Below, one piece after another: positions 1,171 through 31,458 of a stretch of DNA of 51,170 bases. Source of the DNA: a bacterium. GTDB lineage: Bacteria > Patescibacteriota > JACMRA01. The stretch is from NCBI GenBank assembly GCA_043778555.1, contig JAYWFY010000059.1, forward strand, positions 1 to 51,170. The letters run 5' to 3'. The translations under genes and the position numbers were made by a program. The stretch's first letter is position 1; the number at the start of each line of letters is the position of its first letter. The notes below the pieces were generated by a model. The model was not told the origin of the DNA, did not search any database, and saw only the letters and a program-made list of their open reading frames with translations.

Positions 1171-2331
1171 TTAAACTTCCATATTTCTGAGTACAGCCAA
1201 CAAGCGGTCCAAATCCTCGATGTTATTATATGCGTGCAAACTAACTCTAACGCTATCTTTCAATTCTTGTGTGCAATGCTGTCCAATTCTAAGATTAATT
1301 TTATTTTGAGATAGCAAAAACTTTAACTTATCGATACCGTAACTTGGTACAAAACTAACAATTCCTGTATTTTGGATTTTGAGATCATAGCCAGCTCCAG
1401 GCATCAATTCTATAGAGTCAAGTTTGTTAAGTTCCAAAACCAAATATCGAGTCAAACTAGCTATCTCTTGGTGTATATTTTTAATTCCAACACTATTGAT
1501 AAAATCTGTTGCTGAACCCAAGGATAGGATCGAGGCAGTATTTTTGGTTCCAACCTCCAAGCTATATGGAAAATAATTTGTTTCTCCTCCACCAAATTTG
1601 ACTTGCCTGAATTGATTTTTAAATTCGTTGCTAGCAATTAAACCGCCAACTCCTTCAAGTCCAAACATCTTGTGACCTGAAAATAATGCGATATTTACAT
1701 TTAGTTCTTCAAAATTAGTGTTTATGTGACCAGCAGTTTGTGCCATATCTAAAACTGTTATTATATTCTCTGGGATTTGAGCTGTGATTTCTGCTATTGG
1801 ATTAACTAGCCCAAATACATTGTGAGCATGAGTCAAAACTACAAATCTGGTTCTCTCTGTAATATTTGTTAGTAAACTTTTGATATCAATCAAGCCTGTA
1901 AACGGGTCGAGAAGGTATTTTTTGATTTGTATATTTTTACCAACTATTTTTAATTCTTTTGTTAATTCAATCCACGGTAAAATCGTAGCTTTGTGGTCCA
2001 AGTCGCAAATCAAAATTTCGTCCCCATTCATGAGAATATTTTTGGCTAAAGAATTAGTAATAGTATTCATTCCATCTGTAACCCCAAAAGTAAAGGCTAG
2101 ATTGTTTTTTTGAGTTCCAAAAAAATTTGCCACTTTTACCCTTGATTCTTCAATTTGTTCTTCGGTTTCAAAACTCATACCAAAATCACTTCTTCCTGGA
2201 TTTGCAACAGTCTCCAGATATTTAGCAATTGAATCAATGACGCATTTTGGTTTTTGGGAAGTTGCTGCTGAGTCCAAATAAATCAACTCAGGATTGTTTT
2301 GGAAAAATGGGAAATAGCTTCTAATACACAT
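1171..2331 (-). CDS. SufS/CsdA-like cysteine desulfurase (class V PLP enzyme)
   Basis: YLDSAATSQKP, DMAQ, FSGHKMFG (PLP lysine), RIGQHC variant of the group II catalytic RxGHHC motif. Confidence 0.88.
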   Translation of the reverse strand: MCIRSYFPFFQNNPELIYLDSAATSQKPKCVIDSIAKYLETVANPGRSDFGMSFETEEQIEESRVKVANFFGTQKNNLAFTFGVTDGMNTITNSLAKNILMNGDEILICDLDHKATILPWIELTKELKIVGKNIQIKKYLLDPFTGLIDIKSLLTNITERTRFVVLTHAHNVFGLVNPIAEITAQIPENIITVLDMAQTAGHINTNFEELNVNIALFSGHKMFGLEGVGGLIASNEFKNQFRQVKFGGGETNYFPYSLEVGTKNTASILSLGSATDFINSVGIKNIHQEIASLTRYLVLELNKLDSIELMPGAGYDLKIQNTGIVSFVPSYGIDKLKFLLSQNKINLRIGQHCTQELKDSVRVSLHAYNNIEDLDRLLAVLRNMEV

Positions 2332-2333
2332 AA

Positions 2334-3037
2334 TTATCTTAATTTTGCTTCTATAAAAATAGCTTCATGATAGTTAATTTCTTGGTTTAATTCAAATACA
2401 CTAATTTTTGTTGTCGTAAGATTAGAGTTATTAAATAATTGTTCAAGTTTTTTTAAATTAGGATTTAACAATCCTTCCATGTTTGATTCAATCATTTTTC
2501 TTGTAAAATTAGTTACTTTTTTATACCTTAATATCATCAGCAAGAATTTACCATTTGATTCTAACATTTTTGCTACATTGTTTAGTGAGGATATAAAGTC
2601 TGCTTCAGTATTAACACATTCAATTGATTGGATTCCTATTACCATGCTATATTTTTGAGGTAAACTACTTTTTACAAAGTCCAAAATTTCTATTCTATTT
2701 ATTTTTGATACGATGTTTTCAGCTATTTCATGGAAATTTAGCTTGGATGGAATAATGCCATTTTTTTTAAAAATAAAATAGTTTCTTTAAAATTAGCCTC
2801 CAAATACTCTGGACTGAGCTGGTTTATTGTAGCAGATTGAGACTCTATAAAAACTTTATTGCAATCAACAAAATCCACGGTACCAACTTTGTCTATATAT
2901 CCAAGAGACCAATAATGACCAACAGCCCCACAACCAAGATCTAAAACAATGTCTCCGTGTACTTTGGAAATTAATTCTGTAAAGACTAGCTTTCTGATGT
3001 CATTGACTGGGTTAAATATAAAATCAAAATTGTCCAT
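2334..3037 (-). pseudogene. Class I SAM-dependent methyltransferase (NNMT/PNMT/TEMT-like), frameshifted at an A8 run
   Basis: VLDLGCG motif I in the 5' part. One extra A at 2761-2768 joins ...LFLKK to NGIIPSKLNFHEIAENIVSKINRIEILDFVK..., giving a 234-aa ORF that abuts both neighbours. Confidence 0.75.
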
Positions 3038-4364
3038 AACTTTTAATTGTTTTAATAAGTTCAAATTCTTTTTCTTTCCAGGCTTTAATCCCACCGAGTA
3101 ATGAAAATGTAGTATAACCTTGATTTTCTAAAAATGCACAAAATTTACCACTGATTTTACCAACACTACACACGATTACTATTTCTTTGTTCAATGGCAG
3201 AGTATTACCTTGTTCGATAATTGTACCAAAAAGCTCATCAAGTATATTGATAGAATCCTTTATATGCCCTATCGAATAAGCAAAATTACCCCTTATATCT
3301 ATAATAATTGGAGGATTTTGACTGTTAATCTTGAGTAGAAGCTGATCAGGCTCAATTGTTTTCGATATTGCTATTTGATCAGGTGTGATATTGTTGACTG
3401 TTAATCTTGATTGGGTTGATTTTTCAAAAATATCAGGGCAGTATTTTTTGACATAATTCATATATGGTTCTGCCCTATCACAAGCTATAAAAACTACTTT
3501 TTGTTTTTCTTTAAAAGTTTGTGAATTATCAATTTTTTGGAGATAATCGATCATACAAGCATAATTTAATCCACTAGTCGGACCAGCTAGAATTCCACAC
3601 TTCTGATTAATTATTTGCATTCCATAAATAGCTTTCTCGATACTGCCGCTGATAATATCAGTGTAAAACTTTTTATCAAAAAAACCAGTTTCCCAGAGTT
3701 CATTGATATTTCTACCTCCAGGTATCCAGCTTGCTGCTTCTGATATCACTCCAATTGTCTTGACTGGAATATTCATTTGTTTCATATAGCTAGCAGCACC
3801 AAAAGTCGAACCACAAGTACCCAACACACCAAAAAAGTAATCTAAAGTACCCAAATCATTAATTACCTCTTCACCAGTTTTTTGGTGAGCTTTCCAGTTG
3901 TTCTCATTAAAATACTGATCAGTGTATGTCCATTTTGTTGGCTCAGAAATAGCTAAGTTACTCGTTATGGTCAGAGGATTACTTAGATCGTTTGGGTCTG
4001 GACAATCAGATAGCCCTGGTAATTCTTCGATTTGAGCACCCAAAAACTGTAGCATCATCCTTACTTCTTGGACTTTCATCCTATTAGTAATGGTTTTAAA
4101 TTCAAGGTTGTTAATTTTTGCCAAAATAGCTAGTGCCTTGGCTGTGTTACCGCTTGATGACTCAAGTATTGTTTTATTTAATTTTTTAGTTTCCAATAGT
4201 TCAGGTTCTAATATATTTAAAGCAACTCTATCTTTGAGAGAGCCAAAAGGATTATAGTATTCTAGCTTGGCGTAGATTTCAAAGTCATTAAGTTTATGGA
4301 CGCTTTGATCTATTTTTAAAAGCGGGGTGTTGCCTATTAATTCTGTGATATTGTTATAAATCAT
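3024..4364 (-). CDS. Cysteine synthase-like (CysK/CBS fold) PLP enzyme fused to a C-terminal rhodanese
   Basis: IGNTPL, KLEYYNPFGSLKDR, ESSSGNT, GTCGS; C-terminal IIDIR...GHI...CSVGKIS...LLGGIKAW; ATG 4364 overlaps the upstream stop. Confidence 0.9.
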   Translation of the reverse strand: MIYNNITELIGNTPLLKIDQSVHKLNDFEIYAKLEYYNPFGSLKDRVALNILEPELLETKKLNKTILESSSGNTAKALAILAKINNLEFKTITNRMKVQEVRMMLQFLGAQIEELPGLSDCPDPNDLSNPLTITSNLAISEPTKWTYTDQYFNENNWKAHQKTGEEVINDLGTLDYFFGVLGTCGSTFGAASYMKQMNIPVKTIGVISEAASWIPGGRNINELWETGFFDKKFYTDIISGSIEKAIYGMQIINQKCGILAGPTSGLNYACMIDYLQKIDNSQTFKEKQKVVFIACDRAEPYMNYVKKYCPDIFEKSTQSRLTVNNITPDQIAISKTIEPDQLLLKINSQNPPIIIDIRGNFAYSIGHIKDSINILDELFGTIIEQGNTLPLNKEIVIVCSVGKISGKFCAFLENQGYTTFSLLGGIKAWKEKEFELIKTIKSYGQF

Positions 4365-22457: not shown

Positions 22458-22653
22458 TTGACCCTTGTTAATTCAAACCCCTAAAAGACGTACTTACTTA
22501 ATTGTTGTACGGCTTTTTTACTATGGTAGAAATTTGCTAGAAATTTTAAATCTCCCCAAAGCTGGCGCTTTGACCCTCTTTGACAAGAGGGTGATTTGGC
22601 TTTTTATATTTTGATTGACAAGTAGCTTGATCTTTGCAACACTTCTATATATT

Positions 22654-24720
22654 ATGCCTACTAATCTTGAAACCATTAAACACAATATTACTCACGGGAA
22701 CACTCAAAGGTTGAGGAATATATTTGCAGGATTTGGCAACGGTTTAGACGCAAAAGATGTTTGTGATTTGTCTAATATTCACCCGTGGTTTTGTCATAAT
22801 CTTGAGTCATTTTATAATAAGCAAAAGGCTGGTCATTATGAATACTTTAACAATCAAATTAGCAACTATAAAATGGTTGACACTTGTGCAGGTGAGTTTG
22901 AGGCTTATACTCCATTTTTTTATAGTACCAAAAAAGTTGATAGTGATCCAGCTGGTAATGAGGCGACCGATGATTTGTACAATACAGGCAAAGCCAATTT
23001 TGATTATTTGATAGCGAAGGCACAAAAAGACGAGCGATCTTTAGTACTTGACGCTGTGTTATTTAATTGTTATGATAAGGTATTTGTCCAAAAACGTCGC
23101 TCAGATCGTAAATTCTTGCCCAACTGCTGGGGCTTGGTTGGTGGACACTTTATACGAAGTCAAAAAAGATTAAACTTAAGTACTATTTTTGAAGTACTAA
23201 ATGGAATTATTTATGAAGATACAAGCTGGAATCTATCAGAAATCAAATCAGTATTGGAAATTCGTGATTGGGAAAATGACGGTCAAAAAATGCGTACTGT
23301 CGTTTTTGAGACAATAGTCAAGGGTAATTTGGATCATCCAAAGCTAGATATGAACAAAGTCAAAGGCTTCTTATGGATTGACAAAGATGATCTGGAGATT
23401 TTTAGATTCAATCTCAATTATGAAGAAAATCTAATGTACAAGGTTTGTAAAAAAGCACTTGAGCTTCACCATCAACCTCAAAAAGTAATTATTCTTGGTT
23501 CTGGTCCGATTCGCATTGGGCAAGGTGTAGAATTTGACTATCTCACAGTTCATGCTGTTCAAGCTCTCCAAAAACGAGGTATCAAAGCCATTATTATTAA
23601 CAACAATCCTGAGACAGTAAGCACCGATTATAATACTTCCGACAGATTATATTTCGAGCCTTTGACTCCAGAGTTTGTAGCTCGGGTTGTGGAAAATGAA
23701 AAAGAAGGGTTGCTGGGAGTAATAGCTCAATTTGGTGGGCAGACGGCGGTCAATCTCGCTAGACCTCTAGAAGAAATGGGAATTAAAGTCTTGGGCACTA
23801 CAGCGAACGCTATTGACCTTTCTGAAGATCGTGAACTCACTGGAGGATTGATGGTAAAACTCAATTACAAAATGCCAAAATGGGACATAACTTACAAAAA
23901 AAATGAAGTGATAGATAAGTGCAAATCGGTTGGTTTCCCAGTTTTGATAAGACCATCTTTTGTGCTTGGTGGTGAAGGAATGCGAATAGTGTATAGCGAG
24001 ATTGAAGTGGAAACTTATTTACAGGATTATTTTGTAGGGGTAGAAACTTTTGACAAAGCCCTTTTGATAGATAAGTTTCTTGACGATGCCATCGAAGTAG
24101 ATGTGGACTTTATTACTGACGGTAAAAAAACTTATTGCTTTATCATGGAACAGCTCGACAAAGCTGGTGTACATTCTGGTGACAGTGCAAGCGTCTTTCC
24201 TTCACAAAGCCTTAGCCGAGAGATCATGGACAAACTGGTCGAAATGGCGCAAAAAATCGCCAAAGCGTTTCAGGTCATTGGCATTGGTAACTTGCAATGT
24301 GCAATCAAAAATAATGAGATCTACATCATAGAAGTCAATCCTCGAGCTAGTCGTACCGTTCCGTTTATTTCTAAGTGCCTAGGGTTTTCTTTGGCAGAAT
24401 TAGCTACCAACGTAATAATGGGTAGTGAGTTGCCAGAGTTTGACTTTGATTTAGATTATTACAAAAATCCAGTTTATGCCGAAACTCTAAAACAAAAAAT
24501 AGTTCACAAAGAACATCCAGTCGCTCACATTGCTCCAAAGTTTGTTGCTATCAAGTGGCCAGTGTTTTGTACGCATAAACTCATTGGAGTCAAATCTGAC
24601 CTTGGTCCGCTGATGAAATCTACTGGTGAAGCGATGACGGTTGGTAAAACCTTTGCAGAAGCCAAAGCCAAATGGGGCGAAGACAGGAATTTTGACAATG
24701 TAGGAGTTTATGAGGTGTAA
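22654..24720 (+). CDS. carB: C-terminal half of carbamoyl-phosphate synthase large subunit with an inserted Nudix-like domain and no MGS domain
   Basis: YKMVDTCAGEFEA, GSGPIRIGQGVEFDY, NPETVSTD, GVHSGDS, EVNPRASRT, LGPLMKSTGE; insert KVFVQKRRSDRKFLPNCWGLVGGH. Confidence 0.88.
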   Translation: MPTNLETIKHNITHGNTQRLRNIFAGFGNGLDAKDVCDLSNIHPWFCHNLESFYNKQKAGHYEYFNNQISNYKMVDTCAGEFEAYTPFFYSTKKVDSDPAGNEATDDLYNTGKANFDYLIAKAQKDERSLVLDAVLFNCYDKVFVQKRRSDRKFLPNCWGLVGGHFIRSQKRLNLSTIFEVLNGIIYEDTSWNLSEIKSVLEIRDWENDGQKMRTVVFETIVKGNLDHPKLDMNKVKGFLWIDKDDLEIFRFNLNYEENLMYKVCKKALELHHQPQKVIILGSGPIRIGQGVEFDYLTVHAVQALQKRGIKAIIINNNPETVSTDYNTSDRLYFEPLTPEFVARVVENEKEGLLGVIAQFGGQTAVNLARPLEEMGIKVLGTTANAIDLSEDRELTGGLMVKLNYKMPKWDITYKKNEVIDKCKSVGFPVLIRPSFVLGGEGMRIVYSEIEVETYLQDYFVGVETFDKALLIDKFLDDAIEVDVDFITDGKKTYCFIMEQLDKAGVHSGDSASVFPSQSLSREIMDKLVEMAQKIAKAFQVIGIGNLQCAIKNNEIYIIEVNPRASRTVPFISKCLGFSLAELATNVIMGSELPEFDFDLDYYKNPVYAETLKQKIVHKEHPVAHIAPKFVAIKWPVFCTHKLIGVKSDLGPLMKSTGEAMTVGKTFAEAKAKWGEDRNFDNVGVYEV

Positions 24721-24774
24721 ACAAGCTTAAAAAACTTTTGTACTGATTTTTTTGTAGATTAAAGAAGCACAGAA

Positions 24775-24818
24775 TTCATTTCTATTGCTAGAGGTACGTG
24801 GGTATTCCCAATTTGTAC
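24775..24818 (-). ncRNA. Candidate small structured RNA, copy 1 (orphan)
   Basis: Promoter TTGACA (24852-24847)-17-TACAGT (24829-24824); TACAAAT-TGGG-aata-CCCA-cGTA then TCTA-gcaa-TAGA; covaries with the copy at 27070-27114. Confidence 0.55.
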
Positions 24819-24857
24819 TATACACTGTAACAAACAACCAAAACCCTGTCAAATAAT

Positions 24858-25831: not shown

Positions 25832-26659
25832 ATGAGTATCCAACCCCAACCCAACAGATATATTCAGTTAGCTAAATTTCAGAAAATTGAAAATTTTAGA
25901 CTTGATACAATTTTAAAAGGAAATATTTATATGTCTTCTATTTTAAAAGGCTTTAATGACCCATATGAGTTTAGTATGGATTTTTCATTTGCAGACACTG
26001 CTGATGCTGGTGAATTAGTTAGTGCGTTTATAAACAGAATAAAAATTCCAGAAAGCAATGGTAATAGGTTCTCTGAAGTAATTTCTCGTTATATAAGATC
26101 TAAAGCTAGAATAAGTTGTTTTTGTTTTATAGGTGAAATCGAAACGAAAGGCAAAGGTTATTCAAAACCAAGTGAAGGCTATGAAATATCAAAAGTTTTT
26201 CTAGATCATAAGCACTGGAGTCAGTATGGTGATAATCATAAAGGTATGTGTATTTTGTATAATATTCCTACTAATAATGAAATAATAACAAAATTGCATA
26301 AAGTAAAATATGTTGATACTATTCCAAAATTAGAAAAAGAAGATTTTTTCTTTGATGAGGGTAAAATAAATATTGAAAAAACAATTGAAAATATAGGTGA
26401 CAAAATGATGTCTAATAAATCAAAATGTTGGATATCTGAAGGTGAATGTAGATTTTATCACAGCGAAAACAGCCAAGACTTAAATATGACAGGTTTTAAA
26501 AATTGTATTCAAGCAATTATCTTTGGATTAGAGTGTGATGTTGAATCCGAAACGATAAAGCTTTTCATAAAAGAACTAAAATCAAAAGATGAAAGTATCC
26601 AATTTATAAAACTAGTTAAAAATAGTAAATCGTTTGAGCCTGAACTAAGAGAATTATAA
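25832..26659 (+). CDS. DUF2971-family protein
   Basis: FNDPYE, ISCF, WSQYGDNHKGMC, K..CW..E.E.R. Confidence 0.8.
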   Translation: MSIQPQPNRYIQLAKFQKIENFRLDTILKGNIYMSSILKGFNDPYEFSMDFSFADTADAGELVSAFINRIKIPESNGNRFSEVISRYIRSKARISCFCFIGEIETKGKGYSKPSEGYEISKVFLDHKHWSQYGDNHKGMCILYNIPTNNEIITKLHKVKYVDTIPKLEKEDFFFDEGKINIEKTIENIGDKMMSNKSKCWISEGECRFYHSENSQDLNMTGFKNCIQAIIFGLECDVESETIKLFIKELKSKDESIQFIKLVKNSKSFEPELREL

Positions 26660-26671
26660 AACCCTATCTAT

Positions 26672-27073
26672 ATGAACGTACAAAAAACTAAAGATTATAT
26701 AAAATGGCATAGCCTTAAGACAAAAATAAACACTAGATCGAAGCTTGCAACATACAAAAAACGAGATGTATTTTGGTGCCATCTTGGTGAAAATATTGGT
26801 AATGAAGAGGATGGTAAAGGTCAAGACTTTTTGCGACCAGTTGTAGTTCTAAAAGTTTATAACAATGAATTTTGCCTTATTGCTCCTTTATCTTCCAAAG
26901 TCAAAACGAATAAATATTATGTTAATTTTATGTTTAACAAAAAACCACAATCTGCATTGATAAGTCAAATTAAATCTATTGATGTTCGTCGTTTTCACTA
27001 CAAAATGGGAACTCTTAGTCAGCAGGATTACACGCTGATTCTAACGGAATTTATAAAATCTCTCCAAAATTAA
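26672..27073 (+). CDS. PemK/MazF-family endoribonuclease toxin with no adjacent protein antitoxin
   Basis: RDVFWCHLGENIGNEEDGKG...RPVVVL...APLSS...SQIKSIDVRRF. Confidence 0.9.
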   Translation: MNVQKTKDYIKWHSLKTKINTRSKLATYKKRDVFWCHLGENIGNEEDGKGQDFLRPVVVLKVYNNEFCLIAPLSSKVKTNKYYVNFMFNKKPQSALISQIKSIDVRRFHYKMGTLSQQDYTLILTEFIKSLQN

Positions 27074-27114
27074 TCACCCCTTGCGGGGTTACATGTGGCT
27101 AGTGCCAATTTGTA
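27070..27114 (-). ncRNA. Candidate small structured RNA, copy 2, convergent with the PemK/MazF gene
   Basis: Promoter TTGACA (27148-27143)-17-TAAAAT (27125-27120); TACAAAT-TGGC-acta-GCCA-caTGTA then ACCCC-gcaa-GGGGT. Confidence 0.6.
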
Positions 27115-27170
27115 AACTAATTTTACCAAACTCAATCAATCCTGTCAAATTCTAATTTTAACCCATCCAT

Positions 27171-29207
27171 ATGAACGTACAAAAAACTCCTATTTATCAA
27201 TTCCTCGAAGGTGCCGGCAAATCCTTTGTGATTCCTGTGTATCAGCGTGACTACGCATGGACTATCGCCAACTGCCAAAAACTCTGGGACGATATTGTCT
27301 TTATGAAGGCTAATAGCAAACAAAGCCATTTTCTTGGTACTATCGTGACTATTGCCAATGATTTTCAAGAATATCTGGTGATCGATGGTCAGCAGCGGTT
27401 GACTTCTACCTCGCTTCTTCTTTTGGCTCTTCACAATTTTCTTAATTCTAAGAAGAATAAAACCCCGATTGAATCATCTTTGGCAGAACAGGTGTTAGAT
27501 TTTTTGATCAACAAGTATTCTCAAGATCAAAGTAAAAGAATAAGGCTCAAACCCAACAAAGGTGACAAGGATTTTTATGAGCAGCTTTACGACGGCAATG
27601 TCAACAATCTCGTCGATAGTAATATCAATTCCAATTACAACTATTTTTATAAGCAGATTGAGAAAAATATCTTGACACCTGTGGAGCTGTTTCAATTGTT
27701 TCAGCGACTAGAGATTGTGTTGATCTCGCTTGATCGAGGCGTAGATGATCCTCAGTTGATATTTGAAAGCCTCAACAGTACAGGAGTTGATCTCAATGAC
27801 GGCGATTTGATCCGCAACTATATCTTGATGGATTTACCGCCACAACAGCAGGAAAATCTGTACGCCAGCTACTGGATCAAGATCGAAAACTGTGTCAATG
27901 ACGTGGCCGAGTTTGTGAGAGTGTTTTTGATGCACCGCAACCAAGAAAATGTCCGCAAAACCAATCGAGAAATCTATAGCGAATTTCGGCTATACTGCGA
28001 AAGTAAATTTGCCAAAAACCCTGAGAAAACCTTGTCTGAAATGCTGGAGTTTGCTCAGATATACAGCTACTTTATATGTACGTCCAAGTTTCCAGATGCC
28101 AAGATTGGAGTTGCCCTCCATCGTATCTTTAAGCTCGAGGCTACGATTTGTTATCCATATATGCTAGATTTATTTTACGATTACAAAAAAGGTTTGGTCG
28201 GAGCTAATGTTGTTTTAAAGGCTTTGACGCTGATAGAATCCTACATTTTCCGTAAGGTAATTGCCGATGGCTCTACTCAAGGACTCAACAAATTCTTTTT
28301 GACACTATCCAAAGATCTCAAGAAAGACAAAAATTGGCAGAGCAAATACATGGATATTTTTTGTTCAATATTAATCAACCGTTCTTTCACACAAAAGTTC
28401 CCAACCGATGAGGAGTTTGTATTAGCCTTACAAGAAAAAGAAGTCTACAAATACCAGTCCAAAAATCGCAATTTACTTCTACATTCTCTTGAAAATCACA
28501 ATTCAGCATACAAGATTGATAGTGACGATTTGACCATTGAACACATTATGCCGCAGTCTTTGACAGCTGAGTGGAAAGCCAAATTGGGTACGAATTGGGC
28601 AGAGATTCACCGCAAATACCTACATACACTGGGCAATCTCTCACTGACTGCCAAGAATGCCGAGCTTGCCAATAGCGACTTTGCAACCAAACAAAAAATA
28701 GACTTTCAATCTTCAAAGCTGAAACTCAACTTTGATCTCGGCGGTAAGAACTGGAACGAAAAGACAATTGTTATGAGAGCAAGTAACCTAGCCCATGAAG
28801 CTATCCAAATCTGGCCTTATCCAATCAGTAAAATCGTAGTCAAAGTCAAAGAAAATGAGATTTATAATCTAGAAACCGAGTTTAATCCTACCAACAAAAA
28901 GCCTATCAAGTTTTACTTTGGGTTAGAATCTATGAATGTCAAAGCTTGGAAAGATCTGTTATCTATTTTGTGTAGCTACTTTTATATCCAATCGCCAACA
29001 GAGTTTAAAGCCTTGATCAATAGTCCAAAATTCTTCAAATATTTTTCGTTTGAAGGCAACAATAGGACACTAAAATCTCCGATCAAGTTTGCCACTGGAT
29101 ACTATGTTGAAAGTAATAAAAGTGCCTCAGATATTCTAGCAATACTATCCAAAATGTGTGACTTTTTGAAGTTTGATAAAACAAAAATACAGGTACAGGT
29201 AGAGTAA
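27171..29207 (+). CDS. GmrSD-like type IV restriction endonuclease (DUF262 + DUF1524 HNH) with C-terminal extension
   Basis: IPVYQRDYAW, VIDGQQRLT, IFESLNSTG, TIEHIMPQ, HTLGNL. Confidence 0.92.
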   Translation: MNVQKTPIYQFLEGAGKSFVIPVYQRDYAWTIANCQKLWDDIVFMKANSKQSHFLGTIVTIANDFQEYLVIDGQQRLTSTSLLLLALHNFLNSKKNKTPIESSLAEQVLDFLINKYSQDQSKRIRLKPNKGDKDFYEQLYDGNVNNLVDSNINSNYNYFYKQIEKNILTPVELFQLFQRLEIVLISLDRGVDDPQLIFESLNSTGVDLNDGDLIRNYILMDLPPQQQENLYASYWIKIENCVNDVAEFVRVFLMHRNQENVRKTNREIYSEFRLYCESKFAKNPEKTLSEMLEFAQIYSYFICTSKFPDAKIGVALHRIFKLEATICYPYMLDLFYDYKKGLVGANVVLKALTLIESYIFRKVIADGSTQGLNKFFLTLSKDLKKDKNWQSKYMDIFCSILINRSFTQKFPTDEEFVLALQEKEVYKYQSKNRNLLLHSLENHNSAYKIDSDDLTIEHIMPQSLTAEWKAKLGTNWAEIHRKYLHTLGNLSLTAKNAELANSDFATKQKIDFQSSKLKLNFDLGGKNWNEKTIVMRASNLAHEAIQIWPYPISKIVVKVKENEIYNLETEFNPTNKKPIKFYFGLESMNVKAWKDLLSILCSYFYIQSPTEFKALINSPKFFKYFSFEGNNRTLKSPIKFATGYYVESNKSASDILAILSKMCDFLKFDKTKIQVQVE

Positions 29208-30558: not shown

Positions 30559-31458
30559 ATGTTTAAACGCAACCTTGTCGAAGGTCTCAAAAATATCACT
30601 CGATCTATCTGGATTTCTATTACTGCGGTTATTGTACTTACGGTATCGCTTGCTTCTGTAGCCTTGATTATAACTATGTCAGTTACCCTTGGTTATGCTG
30701 TTCGCAACATTGATAGATTAGTTTCTTTCCCAGCTTTCTTCAAAGAAAATGTAGTAGAAGAACAGATTAACAGTACTATATTGCCAAAGATTAAGTCCAA
30801 TCCCAATATCAAAAGTGTGGAGTATTTTGACAAAGAAAAAGCCAAACAAGCCGTCAATACTGGTGCCGTCAATGTTGTGTCTACTAGTCTAGGAGGCGAC
30901 GAAAATTATGCTTGGAGATATTTACTTATCACCCCAAACAAGTCCGAAAATTACACTGAACTAGTTAGTTTTGTTAAAGATGGAGACTATAAAGATGCCT
31001 TTGTAGAAGTTCCAGCTGATACCGTCGCTATTACCAAGCTTACCAAGTTTTATGAATGGGTCAATGTGGCTAGTGTAGTAACAATTATCATTTTTTCAAT
31101 AGTGGCAATATTAGTGATGTCCAATATTTTAAGAATGACGATTTATAACAACAAAGAAGAAATTGAAATTATGAGACTAGTGGGAGCAACTAACGCCTAT
31201 ATTCAAGGTCCTTTTATTACTCAAGGAGTACTTTATAATCTGGTTTCGGCGATATTAGTGATCATATTGTTTGTGAGTGGGATTAGCTTTGCAGCTCCTA
31301 CTCTGCGTTCATATTTAGGAGTCAGTAGTCTTACTAACGGTAGCGGTGGAGATCTCATTCCGCAGATATTCTTATCGTTAGGTTTGACTATGTTCTTGGC
31401 AATTGCGATGGGCGCTGTGACCGTTTATTTTTCAATTCAACGATACCTCAAATCCTAA
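30559..31458 (+). CDS. ftsX: Cell division permease-like protein FtsX
   Basis: 4-TM layout, EIEIMRLVGAT..YIQGPF. Confidence 0.9.
   Translation: MFKRNLVEGLKNITRSIWISITAVIVLTVSLASVALIITMSVTLGYAVRNIDRLVSFPAFFKENVVEEQINSTILPKIKSNPNIKSVEYFDKEKAKQAVNTGAVNVVSTSLGGDENYAWRYLLITPNKSENYTELVSFVKDGDYKDAFVEVPADTVAITKLTKFYEWVNVASVVTIIIFSIVAILVMSNILRMTIYNNKEEIEIMRLVGATNAYIQGPFITQGVLYNLVSAILVIILFVSGISFAAPTLRSYLGVSSLTNGSGGDLIPQIFLSLGLTMFLAIAMGAVTVYFSIQRYLKS

Follow-up and report, generated by a model that had tools for sequence, protein, structure and literature searches.

A PemK/MazF-family toxin gene in a 51,170-nucleotide (nt) stretch of patescibacterial DNA (Bacteria; Patescibacteriota; JACMRA01; assembly GCA_043778555.1, contig JAYWFY010000059.1, positions 1 to 51,170; hereafter the window) is faced at its 3′ end by a convergent gene for a predicted small RNA of about 48 nt, and this arrangement recurs behind homologous toxin genes across the phylum. 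Our interpretation, to which we give a probability of roughly 85%, is that the two genes form one compact toxin-antitoxin module in which the RNA is the antitoxin, by whatever mechanism it acts. A first-pass annotation of the window had proposed an RNA antitoxin for this toxin, and the conserved convergent RNA and the lack of a protein antitoxin in the loci examined support that proposal. We infer the antitoxin role from the association itself, from the asymmetric survival of RNA and toxin genes, and from a probable, though unverified, experimental precedent on the Campylobacter jejuni plasmid pVir.

A PemK/MazF toxin gene and a convergent small-RNA gene

The toxin gene (26672..27073, plus strand) encodes a protein of 133 amino acids (aa) that matches Pfam PF02452 (PemK_toxin) over residues 29-129 (E = 4.9e-12; 46.5 bits against a cut-off of 23.1), the sole Pfam family on the protein at E ≤ 0.01. 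The NCBIfam MazF equivalog model reaches 25.9 bits on it against a cut-off of 120, and PADLOC returned no match to the toxin. A profile built from 58 family members matches Bacillus subtilis MazF/EndoA (4mdx; E = 2e-8), and W12, G39, N41, G43, E45, R55, P56 and R107 are invariant in the underlying alignment. R55-P56 aligns with the RP of 'GGVRPVLV' in B. subtilis MazF, the PL[ST][ST]K segment of the family aligns with its 'AITAQ', and a conserved LSQIR..D..RL segment is likewise aligned to it. Arg25 and Thr48 are the catalytic residues of B. subtilis MazF, and the alignment indicates that the catalytic Arg and Ser/Thr positions are kept in the toxin family.

The predicted fold is the SH3-like barrel of MazF/Kid. 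An AlphaFold2 model of the toxin (predicted local distance difference test score 95.3) contains the MazF barrel together with an extra N-terminal helix (residues 9-20) and a C-terminal helix, and all Foldseek matches listed are of MazF/PemK type, the best being MazF, PemK and MoxT chains. Staphylococcus aureus, B. subtilis and Escherichia coli MazF head these matches, with E-values of 7e-8 to 7e-6 and target-normalised template modelling scores of 0.65-0.81. The N-terminal helix is specific to the family, conserved and basic, with W12 and K16 invariant or nearly so, and the loop between strands 1 and 2 is longer than in MazF/PemK. Family members are 125-150 aa long and as little as 24-41% identical to one another. 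At E ≤ 1e-10, no fewer than 1652 of 3209 candidate proteins belong to the family; their sources name them MazF or PemK ('type II PemK/MazF family toxin' or 'mRNA interferase MazF').

The RNA promoter (27120..27148, minus strand) consists of a -35 element TTGACA (27148-27143), a 17-nt spacer ending in TG and a -10 element TAAAAT (27125-27120). The near-consensus promoter that the first-pass annotation had described as pointing back at the toxin thus holds up: it has 11 of 12 consensus matches plus the TG before the -10 element and is the best of 21 promoter-like sites between 25000 and 30000, where the total of such sites is at the chance level (21 against 21.8 in shuffled sequence). The predicted RNA (27066..27113, minus strand; based on promoter position, fold, terminator scan and covariance model) would begin at the seventh base past the -10 element with the leader ACAAAU (27113-27108) and continue with hairpin H1 (UGGC-ACUA-GCCA, 27107-27096), the linker CAUGUA (27095-27090) and hairpin H2 (ACCCC-GCAA-GGGGU, 27089-27076) with the tail GAUUAAUUUU. 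Its start is placed by the position of the -10 element, and both of its ends are predicted from sequence.

The terminator scan called a site on the minus strand at 27089-27076 (ACCCC GCAA GGGGT, then GATTAATTTT), whose U run (27069-27066) lies over the stop codon (27071-27073) and final codons of the toxin; on the plus strand past the toxin stop, the same scan called no terminator-like site. The RNA folds with a minimum free energy of -16.2 kcal/mol (z = -2.14), and 8 of 200 shuffled sequences were equally stable, so that the fold of the single copy provides modest evidence by itself and the case against chance is a comparative one. The first-pass description of a two-hairpin RNA ending at the toxin stop is sustained for fold and terminator and gives way for the outer bulged stem: the UUAC/GUAA helix enclosing H1 is particular to the window copy and absent from the family consensus. 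The comparison with Rfam that it had called for was run on release 15: no family reached its gathering score in the window, and in eight loci searched at E ≤ 5 no match coincided with the RNA on its strand.

Promoter, RNA layout and orientation are conserved across the phylum

A six-frame protein search of 401 genomes of the window's phylum gave matches in 52, often with multiple copies; the window's own genome holds three copies of the toxin homologue. The locus set comprised 89 loci encoding homologues, 85 of them with an intact toxin, and the DNA 3′ of the stop codon was read for 31 homologues and then for about 60 more. On the opposite strand, nearly all loci carry a TTGACA-type -35 element, a 16-18-nt spacer, a TAnnnT -10 element and an A at the seventh base after it, followed by a common RNA layout: a leader A-Y-A-W-W-U, a short H1, a linker that is often CGA, a G+C-rich H2 and a U-rich tail beside the stop codon.

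A simple descriptor detected 70 modules, from which the statistics on promoter and RNA were taken. The -35 element is TTGACA in 43/70 and TTGACT in 16/70, the spacer measures 17 nt in 52/70, the distance from the -10 element to H1 is 11-12 nt in 50/70, and the base at +7 is A in 51/70. The predicted RNA has a median length of 46 nt (range 35-62), with H2 loops of GCAA or GAAA in 30/70 modules and H1 loops of UUCG in 14/70. Between H2 and the toxin stop lies a median gap of 7 nt (range -53 to +52), and the RNA overlaps the end of the toxin open reading frame (ORF) in 15/70.

In its strict form the descriptor found the RNA gene at 58/85 intact toxins, against 1/85 on the toxin strand, 0/85 in shuffled sequence and 2/164 in upstream windows; the relaxed form found it at 70/85, against 2/85, 0/85 and 5/164, respectively. 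Read by eye, 11 of the 15 intact toxins missed by the relaxed descriptor have variant RNAs (imperfect stems, longer H1, extra units), two (L007 and L070) are atypical and two (L014 and L088; 2/85) have no RNA. A search with a covariance model (R2, described below) in the genomes of these last two toxins (G127 and G316) found no RNA elsewhere, with 150 of 210-283 candidates scored and a model that is weak on some subclasses.

A few loci hold arrays of two or three RNA units, always downstream of the toxin and convergent with it. The units of L008 and L066 stand in series with no promoter between them and keep the leader motif in the internal units, L069 has three RNA units of about 50 nt, and L039 and L082 have two complete copies of promoter and RNA. 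At L016, L022, L023, L028, L030, L049 and L073, where the toxin ORF extends into the RNA gene, the protein ends in a tail that is the translated complement of H2, linker and H1, examples being ...LPPSR, ...GESRG and ...GGRG.

Base pairs of both hairpins covary

MAFFT followed by RNAalifold on 21 RNAs recovered H1 only, as MAFFT failed to align H2. Covariance models were therefore bootstrapped, R1 from two in-register sequences, R2 from 38 matches and R3 from 64. On the window RNA, R2 scores 41.8 bits at 27068-27119 of the minus strand (E = 1.7e-9 in the window's own genome) and R3 scores 44.6 bits (locus L171, 58-109). Run unfiltered on the 89 tight loci (133-181 nt each, 16 kb in total), R3 gave a full-length match in 72/89, among them 69 of the 85 whose toxin is intact. 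There are 74 full-length matches in total, each on the opposite strand to the toxin gene, with none on the toxin strand; the other R3 rows are three hairpin-only fragments.

In the alignment A10, 95.7% of 808 cells form standard pairs, against 65.2% in shuffled alignments and 45-66% when the partner column is slid by one to three positions. All 13 pairs show two-sided compensatory changes, in 250 cells against 64 in shuffles, and a cleaner alignment of 53 rows (A7) gives the same covariation result with 97.7% of cells paired against 69.4%. These alignments are fitted to the model, a procedure that favours its structure; the slid controls and the independent descriptor argue against an artefact. 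Conservation extends to unpaired bases of the 53-row alignment, namely the U before H1 (50/53), the C after H1 (50/53), a G in the linker (39/47) and the G after H2 (44/53), as well as to a GNAA loop in H2. A covariance model of homologous loci was among the checks proposed for the first-pass reading, and it recovers the RNA in 72/89 loci with compensatory change at 13/13 pairs. A lack of conserved promoter or inner hairpin downstream of homologues had been named beforehand as a result able to refute that reading; promoter, leader, H1, linker and terminator hairpin are instead all conserved, with covariation, and always convergent.

Searches starting from the RNA lead back to the toxin

A pattern of the promoter and one H1 type was scanned in one genome per species (185,579 species), yielding 66 matches spread over 65 stretches; by our own arithmetic, chance would yield about 23. 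At 34 of these 66 matches, a convergent ORF matching the PemK family profile lies within 200 nt. According to their record titles, the carriers are Saccharibacteria, Doudnabacteria, Woesebacteria, Zambryskibacteria, Taylorbacteria and other Parcubacteria-type metagenome-assembled genomes, together with some assemblies titled Rickettsiales, Alphaproteobacteria and Bdellovibrionales. Titles are at odds with the genome grouping at L163 (Bdellovibrionales), at L103, L104, L113, L126 and L133 (Rickettsiales, Rickettsia, Alphaproteobacteria) and at L143 (Alphaproteobacteria).

With R2 at E ≤ 1e-6 in the window's own genome and five others, 17 of 22 matches abut a PemK match. Among 150 further genomes, R2 matched at E ≤ 1e-4 in 10; eight of these are among the 15 PemK-positive genomes, provided that the set is G001-G150, and the other two are plain terminators by eye. 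The R2 matches in G068, G123 and contig C26 of G084 were rejected as RNA genes, being plain terminators that by eye have neither promoter nor H1, and because of these the E-values of about 1e-4 to 1e-7 from whole-genome scans with R2 and R3 are not fully reliable.

No protein antitoxin, and RNA genes that outlast the toxin

No conserved protein antitoxin, MazE/PemI or other, was found beside the toxin in the loci examined. Among the 77 upstream ORFs nearest to the toxin on its strand, 71 are unrelated to any other in the set and the remainder form three pairs, most of the short ones looking spurious. The downstream genes are mutually unrelated except for two pairs and are of the housekeeping kind, resembling for example UvrB and tRNA synthetases (names assigned by eye). 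The first-pass annotation had described the window toxin as an intact ORF between a DUF2971 and a GmrSD gene with no small antitoxin gene, and the Pfam match and the lack of any plausible small ORF between these three genes agree with this.

RNA genes also stand where the toxin has decayed. An orphan RNA copy in the window (24773..24852, minus strand) has TTGACA at 24852-24847, a 17-nt spacer, TACAGT at 24829-24824 and a predicted RNA at 24822-24773, which R2 matches with 35.6 bits (contig C59, E = 2.5e-7). It keeps an intact H1 (UGGGAAUACCCA) alongside a degenerate H2 and has no toxin gene beside it; the copy lies 53 nt past the stop of a carB-like ORF (22615-24720) and looks like a decayed module. 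In the same genome, the orphan RNA at 1880-1932 of contig C65 stands beside a remnant that reads ...NLYK*, like the toxin C-terminus. The orphan L169 stands beside the last third of a toxin gene, and L167, L095, L096 and L097 have no toxin remnant. RNA genes without a toxin are seen, toxins without an RNA in only 2/85 cases, as would be expected of an RNA that protects against the toxin.

Individual loci of this kind have features of their own. At L013 (genome G190, contig C4), an in-frame TAA interrupts the toxin in mid-barrel, yet a promoter with 12/12 consensus matches and an intact RNA lie downstream. L095 (G350, C6, 110920-110977) is among the best RNA matches (55 bits) and by eye has no promoter; it directly follows a same-strand gene pair that we take to resemble DUF433 and a PIN-like DUF5615. 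Beside the orphan on C65 of the window's own genome, two gene pairs at 2150-3386 may form a small toxin-antitoxin island; by eye, they resemble Phd/YefM-type antitoxins with YoeB/Txe-type toxins.

Related loci on Campylobacterota plasmids and in prophages

Outside the phylum, tblastn found homologues that include the N-terminal extension in seven Campylobacter prophage records and one Latilactobacillus phage, as well as on 15 plasmids (seven from Campylobacter, six from Helicobacter and two from Nitratiruptor). Inspection by eye of the loci from Nitratiruptor, pVir, CJIE4 and Helicobacter showed, in each, a convergent promoter of the extended -10 type with an RNA of two to three hairpins, the last of which abuts the stop codon. 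The Nitratiruptor RNA (AUAAAUC, a 6-bp H1, CCA, then H2) has, again by eye, the design seen in the candidate phyla radiation (CPR). Small plasmids carry the toxin with this RNA layout (by eye) and no antitoxin gene; on a 5.8-kb plasmid of Helicobacter suis with five annotated features, the toxin and relaxase genes overlap and the annotation lists no protein antitoxin.

The pVir plasmid of C. jejuni 81-176 encodes, at 30634-31038 of NC_008770.1, a PemK/MazF homologue that is the only toxin-antitoxin annotation among its 48 coding sequences. It is 40% identical to the window toxin over 73% of the query, in an alignment that begins at residue 11, within the N-terminal helix. A 2016 study by Shen et al. 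in Molecular Microbiology is said to have reported cjrA/cjpT of pVir as a type I toxin-antitoxin pair. Excerpts of two further papers describe CjrA on pVir as the antisense RNA antitoxin of a type I system (PMC10470494, PMC7826846). CjrA may be this very module: according to these excerpts, an RNA antitoxin described as an antisense small RNA is paired with a protein toxin on pVir. The two differ in that the RNA read on pVir would be about 90 nt long with three hairpins and is unmatched by R3, and in that a phylum-wide family, a two-hairpin consensus and covariation are absent from the texts searched.

How the RNA may act, and what else it could be

Among possible mechanisms we rank antisense action on the 3′ end of the toxin mRNA first, above direct binding to the toxin, as a candidate that falls a little short of even odds. 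From its near-consensus promoter, the small RNA would be made constitutively and in excess. Its terminator abuts or overlaps the toxin stop, with no space left for a terminator of the toxin gene's own; the toxin mRNA would therefore have to enter the RNA gene and would bear the exact complement of the RNA at its 3′ end. The unpaired leader of 5-6 nt would start the pairing, and the duplex would cause the toxin mRNA to be cleaved or degraded, or would lower toxin synthesis, as in type I systems that overlap at the 3′ end; loss of the module or a halt in RNA synthesis would then let the MazF-type RNase be made and arrest the cell. Should transcription of the toxin gene continue beyond its stop, the layout implies complementarity at the 3′ end, given the 7-nt median gap and the 15/70 overlaps. 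The always-convergent, stop-abutting form of this layout favours antisense action, as do the lack of a called terminator on the plus strand and the possible CjrA precedent.

Several observations weigh against the module as read here. The hairpin loops are mostly UUCG or GNRA tetraloops, which are poor for starting RNA-RNA pairing, and the RNA is nearly all two stable hairpins; an RNA that acts in cis by antisense does not need unpaired nucleotides conserved across a phylum; two or three tandem units suit a matching of RNA to toxin amounts better than pairing; and the toxin family has its extra conserved basic N-terminal helix. Cognate-specific complementarity of the RNA was found neither to the toxin start region nor to the coding region (n = 44; p = 0.61 and 0.11, respectively), for the intact toxins L014 and L088 no RNA was found, and R3, when run on the loci from Campylobacter, Nitratiruptor and CJIE4, matched nothing where the RNA was expected (best E = 1.1). 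The likeness to Campylobacterota is accordingly a reading by eye that R3 does not score, and CjpT is no more than a candidate for the pVir PemK homologue. Pairing in trans with the toxin start or coding region, of the kind seen in par, was considered and rejected, cognate pairs being no better than non-cognate ones.

Direct neutralisation of the toxin protein by the RNA, in the manner of type III systems, is a reading that we hold more tentatively than the antisense one, although the two could operate together. It would place the leader pppA-Y-A-W-W-U in the MazF substrate groove as a mimic of product or substrate and have H1 and the conserved bases flanking it held by the N-terminal helix together with the enlarged loop that joins strands 1 and 2, and the toxin may also process multi-unit transcripts. 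It would account for the conservation of unpaired bases and hairpin geometry among toxins that are just 24-41% identical, for the stable and inert tetraloops, for a leader motif that persists in promoter-less internal units (L008, L066) and arrays of up to three units (L069), for W12 and K16 of the extra helix being invariant or nearly so alongside the invariant N41, G43 and E45, and for a predicted RNA whose first base is, in most loci, the A of AYA (+7 is A in 51/70). ToxN-type toxins, too, are MazF-like and are held by RNAs cut at AA^AU, according to an excerpt of PMC7781912. Against it, a protein-binding RNA does not need a strictly convergent, stop-abutting position, the conserved leader reflects, as far as the pyrimidine at -1 and the A at +1 go, ordinary start-site preference, the type III RNAs covered by the same excerpt (PMC7781912) are all upstream tandem repeats on the toxin strand, and the sole studied and possibly homologous system is described, in the excerpts on CjrA, as antisense and type I. 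If direct binding were to apply, the modules would make up an undescribed, phylum-wide toxin-antitoxin class, a reading that we advance with similar reserve: a MazF RNase bound by an independently transcribed two-hairpin RNA of about 46 nt, the triphosphorylated 5′ end of which (A-Y-A-W-W-U) would mimic the 3′ product or substrate while H1 docks on the N-terminal helix. Such a class would be a single-unit, convergent counterpart of type III; it appears to be the common form of MazF in small-genome Patescibacteria, shared with Campylobacterota plasmids and prophages.

The RNA could also be real and serve another role, as a pair of facing terminators or an insulator that would shape the 3′ end of the toxin mRNA, as a regulator of some other target, or as a preferred substrate or a sensor of a toxin that is controlled otherwise, which we consider unlikely. 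The association taken alone carries no direction of effect, two intact toxins have no RNA, and in loci with an ACAAAU leader the complement of H1 followed by AUUURU could be a weak terminator of the toxin mRNA; about half of the leaders, however, give A-rich rather than U-rich sequence after the H1 complement. Neither the conservation of an independent near-consensus promoter nor the persistence of promoter-bearing RNA genes after toxin decay fits such a role well, the loci hold no alternative antitoxin candidate, and small plasmids carry toxin and RNA with no antitoxin gene. More remote still is a chance promoter-like site beside an ordinary toxin terminator, with no RNA gene at all. The number of promoter-like sites at the chance expectation (21 against 21.8) and a fold z-score of only -2.14 would be in keeping with it, but it is on the minus strand, not the plus strand, that a U run comes after the hairpin, the promoter, its spacing and both hairpins recur with covariation in 72/89 loci and always on the opposite strand, and the descriptor controls are near zero.

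Relation to known toxin-antitoxin systems

Parallels in composition are offered by the type III systems ToxIN, AbiQ/antiQ, CptIN and TenpIN, which likewise combine a MazF-like endoribonuclease with a small structured RNA and have no protein antitoxin. Type III RNAs form an upstream array of 2.8-5.5 repeats co-transcribed with the toxin, whereas the RNA described here is usually a single unit with its own promoter, downstream and convergent, a difference that the first-pass annotation had already pointed out. The toxin is moreover of the PemK/MazF and not the ToxN/AbiQ family, with no ToxN chain among the Foldseek matches listed, and the RNA has two hairpins and no predicted pseudoknot. The occasional tandem units and the A-rich/U motifs at unit boundaries are further points of likeness (ToxN cuts AA^AU, in the excerpt of PMC7781912).

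With the type II systems MazEF and PemIK (Kid-Kis), the modules share the toxin family, the fold, the Arg-Pro and Ser/Thr positions and the LSQIR..D..RL segment; they differ in the lack of an upstream MazE/PemI gene in the loci examined, in the extra N-terminal helix and in the longer loop between strands 1 and 2. Type I systems with convergent antitoxin RNAs that overlap the toxin transcript at the 3′ end include txpA/RatA, bsrG/SR4 and the par system, with Fst, RNAI and RNAII. The likeness lies in a convergent small RNA with its own promoter, the 3′ part of which overlaps the 3′ end of the toxin transcript. The toxin here, by contrast, is a soluble RNase of 125-150 aa (133 aa in the window) rather than a hydrophobic peptide, and the RNA is much shorter (median 46 nt), nearly all hairpin, and conserved in sequence and structure across the phylum. 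SymE/SymR (PMC1891008) illustrates that the toxin of a type I system can be something other than a membrane peptide.

Another structured RNA tied to pemK genes, the Rfam pemK RNA motif, is located upstream of those genes in Firmicutes. It is a named Rfam family according to an excerpt of a preprint (bioRxiv 10.1101/2024.10.12.618037), and it differs from the RNA described here in that the latter drew no Rfam 15 match, either at gathering score in the window or in the eight loci searched. In the main texts covered by a full-text literature search, no MazF/PemK toxin is described as having a conserved, convergent small RNA, mentions of CjrA aside. Neither PemK nor MazF comes up in the main text of a 2026 preprint devoted to the mining of non-coding elements (10.64898/2026.09.22.753630).

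MazF and PemK are textbook type II toxins neutralised by a protein, and the large branch described here has no protein partner and instead a conserved structured small-RNA gene. Current annotation overlooks this RNA, and members of the family consequently look like solitary toxins. If the RNA is the antitoxin, the toxin family does not reveal the type of a toxin-antitoxin system, the compact two-part module of 0.5 kb could serve as a tool, and a link between types I, II and III, with one fold and three modes of neutralisation, becomes directly testable. The presence of the module on plasmids of cultivable Campylobacter and Helicobacter makes experiments feasible, and the RNA would be among the few conserved small RNAs known in Patescibacteria.

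Neighbourhood of the module in the window

The anti-phage role suggested in the first-pass annotation is conceivable: the window copy of the module is surrounded by defence genes, but most other copies stand among housekeeping genes. Upstream, a DUF2971 gene (25832-26659, 275 aa), which matches the PADLOC candidate defence family PDC-S31, ends 12 nt before the toxin gene. Downstream, a GmrSD-type gene (27171-29207), with the Pfam domains GmrSD_N and GmrSD_C and PADLOC assignments to Orf5, HEC-06 and mREase_IV, starts 97 nt past it. A search for tRNA and tmRNA genes found none.

The module of toxin and RNA, 499 bp long, is flanked by two 27-nt direct repeats that are 93% identical and 499 nt apart. 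The left copy (26663..26689, plus strand) holds the start of the toxin gene and the right copy (27162..27188, plus strand) that of the GmrSD-type gene, each with the first six codons MNVQKT. Homologues of the toxin begin near ...KDF.KW, and the MNVQKT of the window toxin is a copy of the GmrSD start, which suggests that the unit of toxin and RNA was inserted into the 5′ end of the GmrSD-type gene, the toxin using the duplicated GmrSD start. Flanking direct repeats are not general elsewhere, the longest word shared between flanks having a median of 8 in 88 loci, equal to the control. The control maximum of 11 is surpassed at only six to seven of these 88 loci, and tandem modules account for the two longest shared words (L037 and L090).

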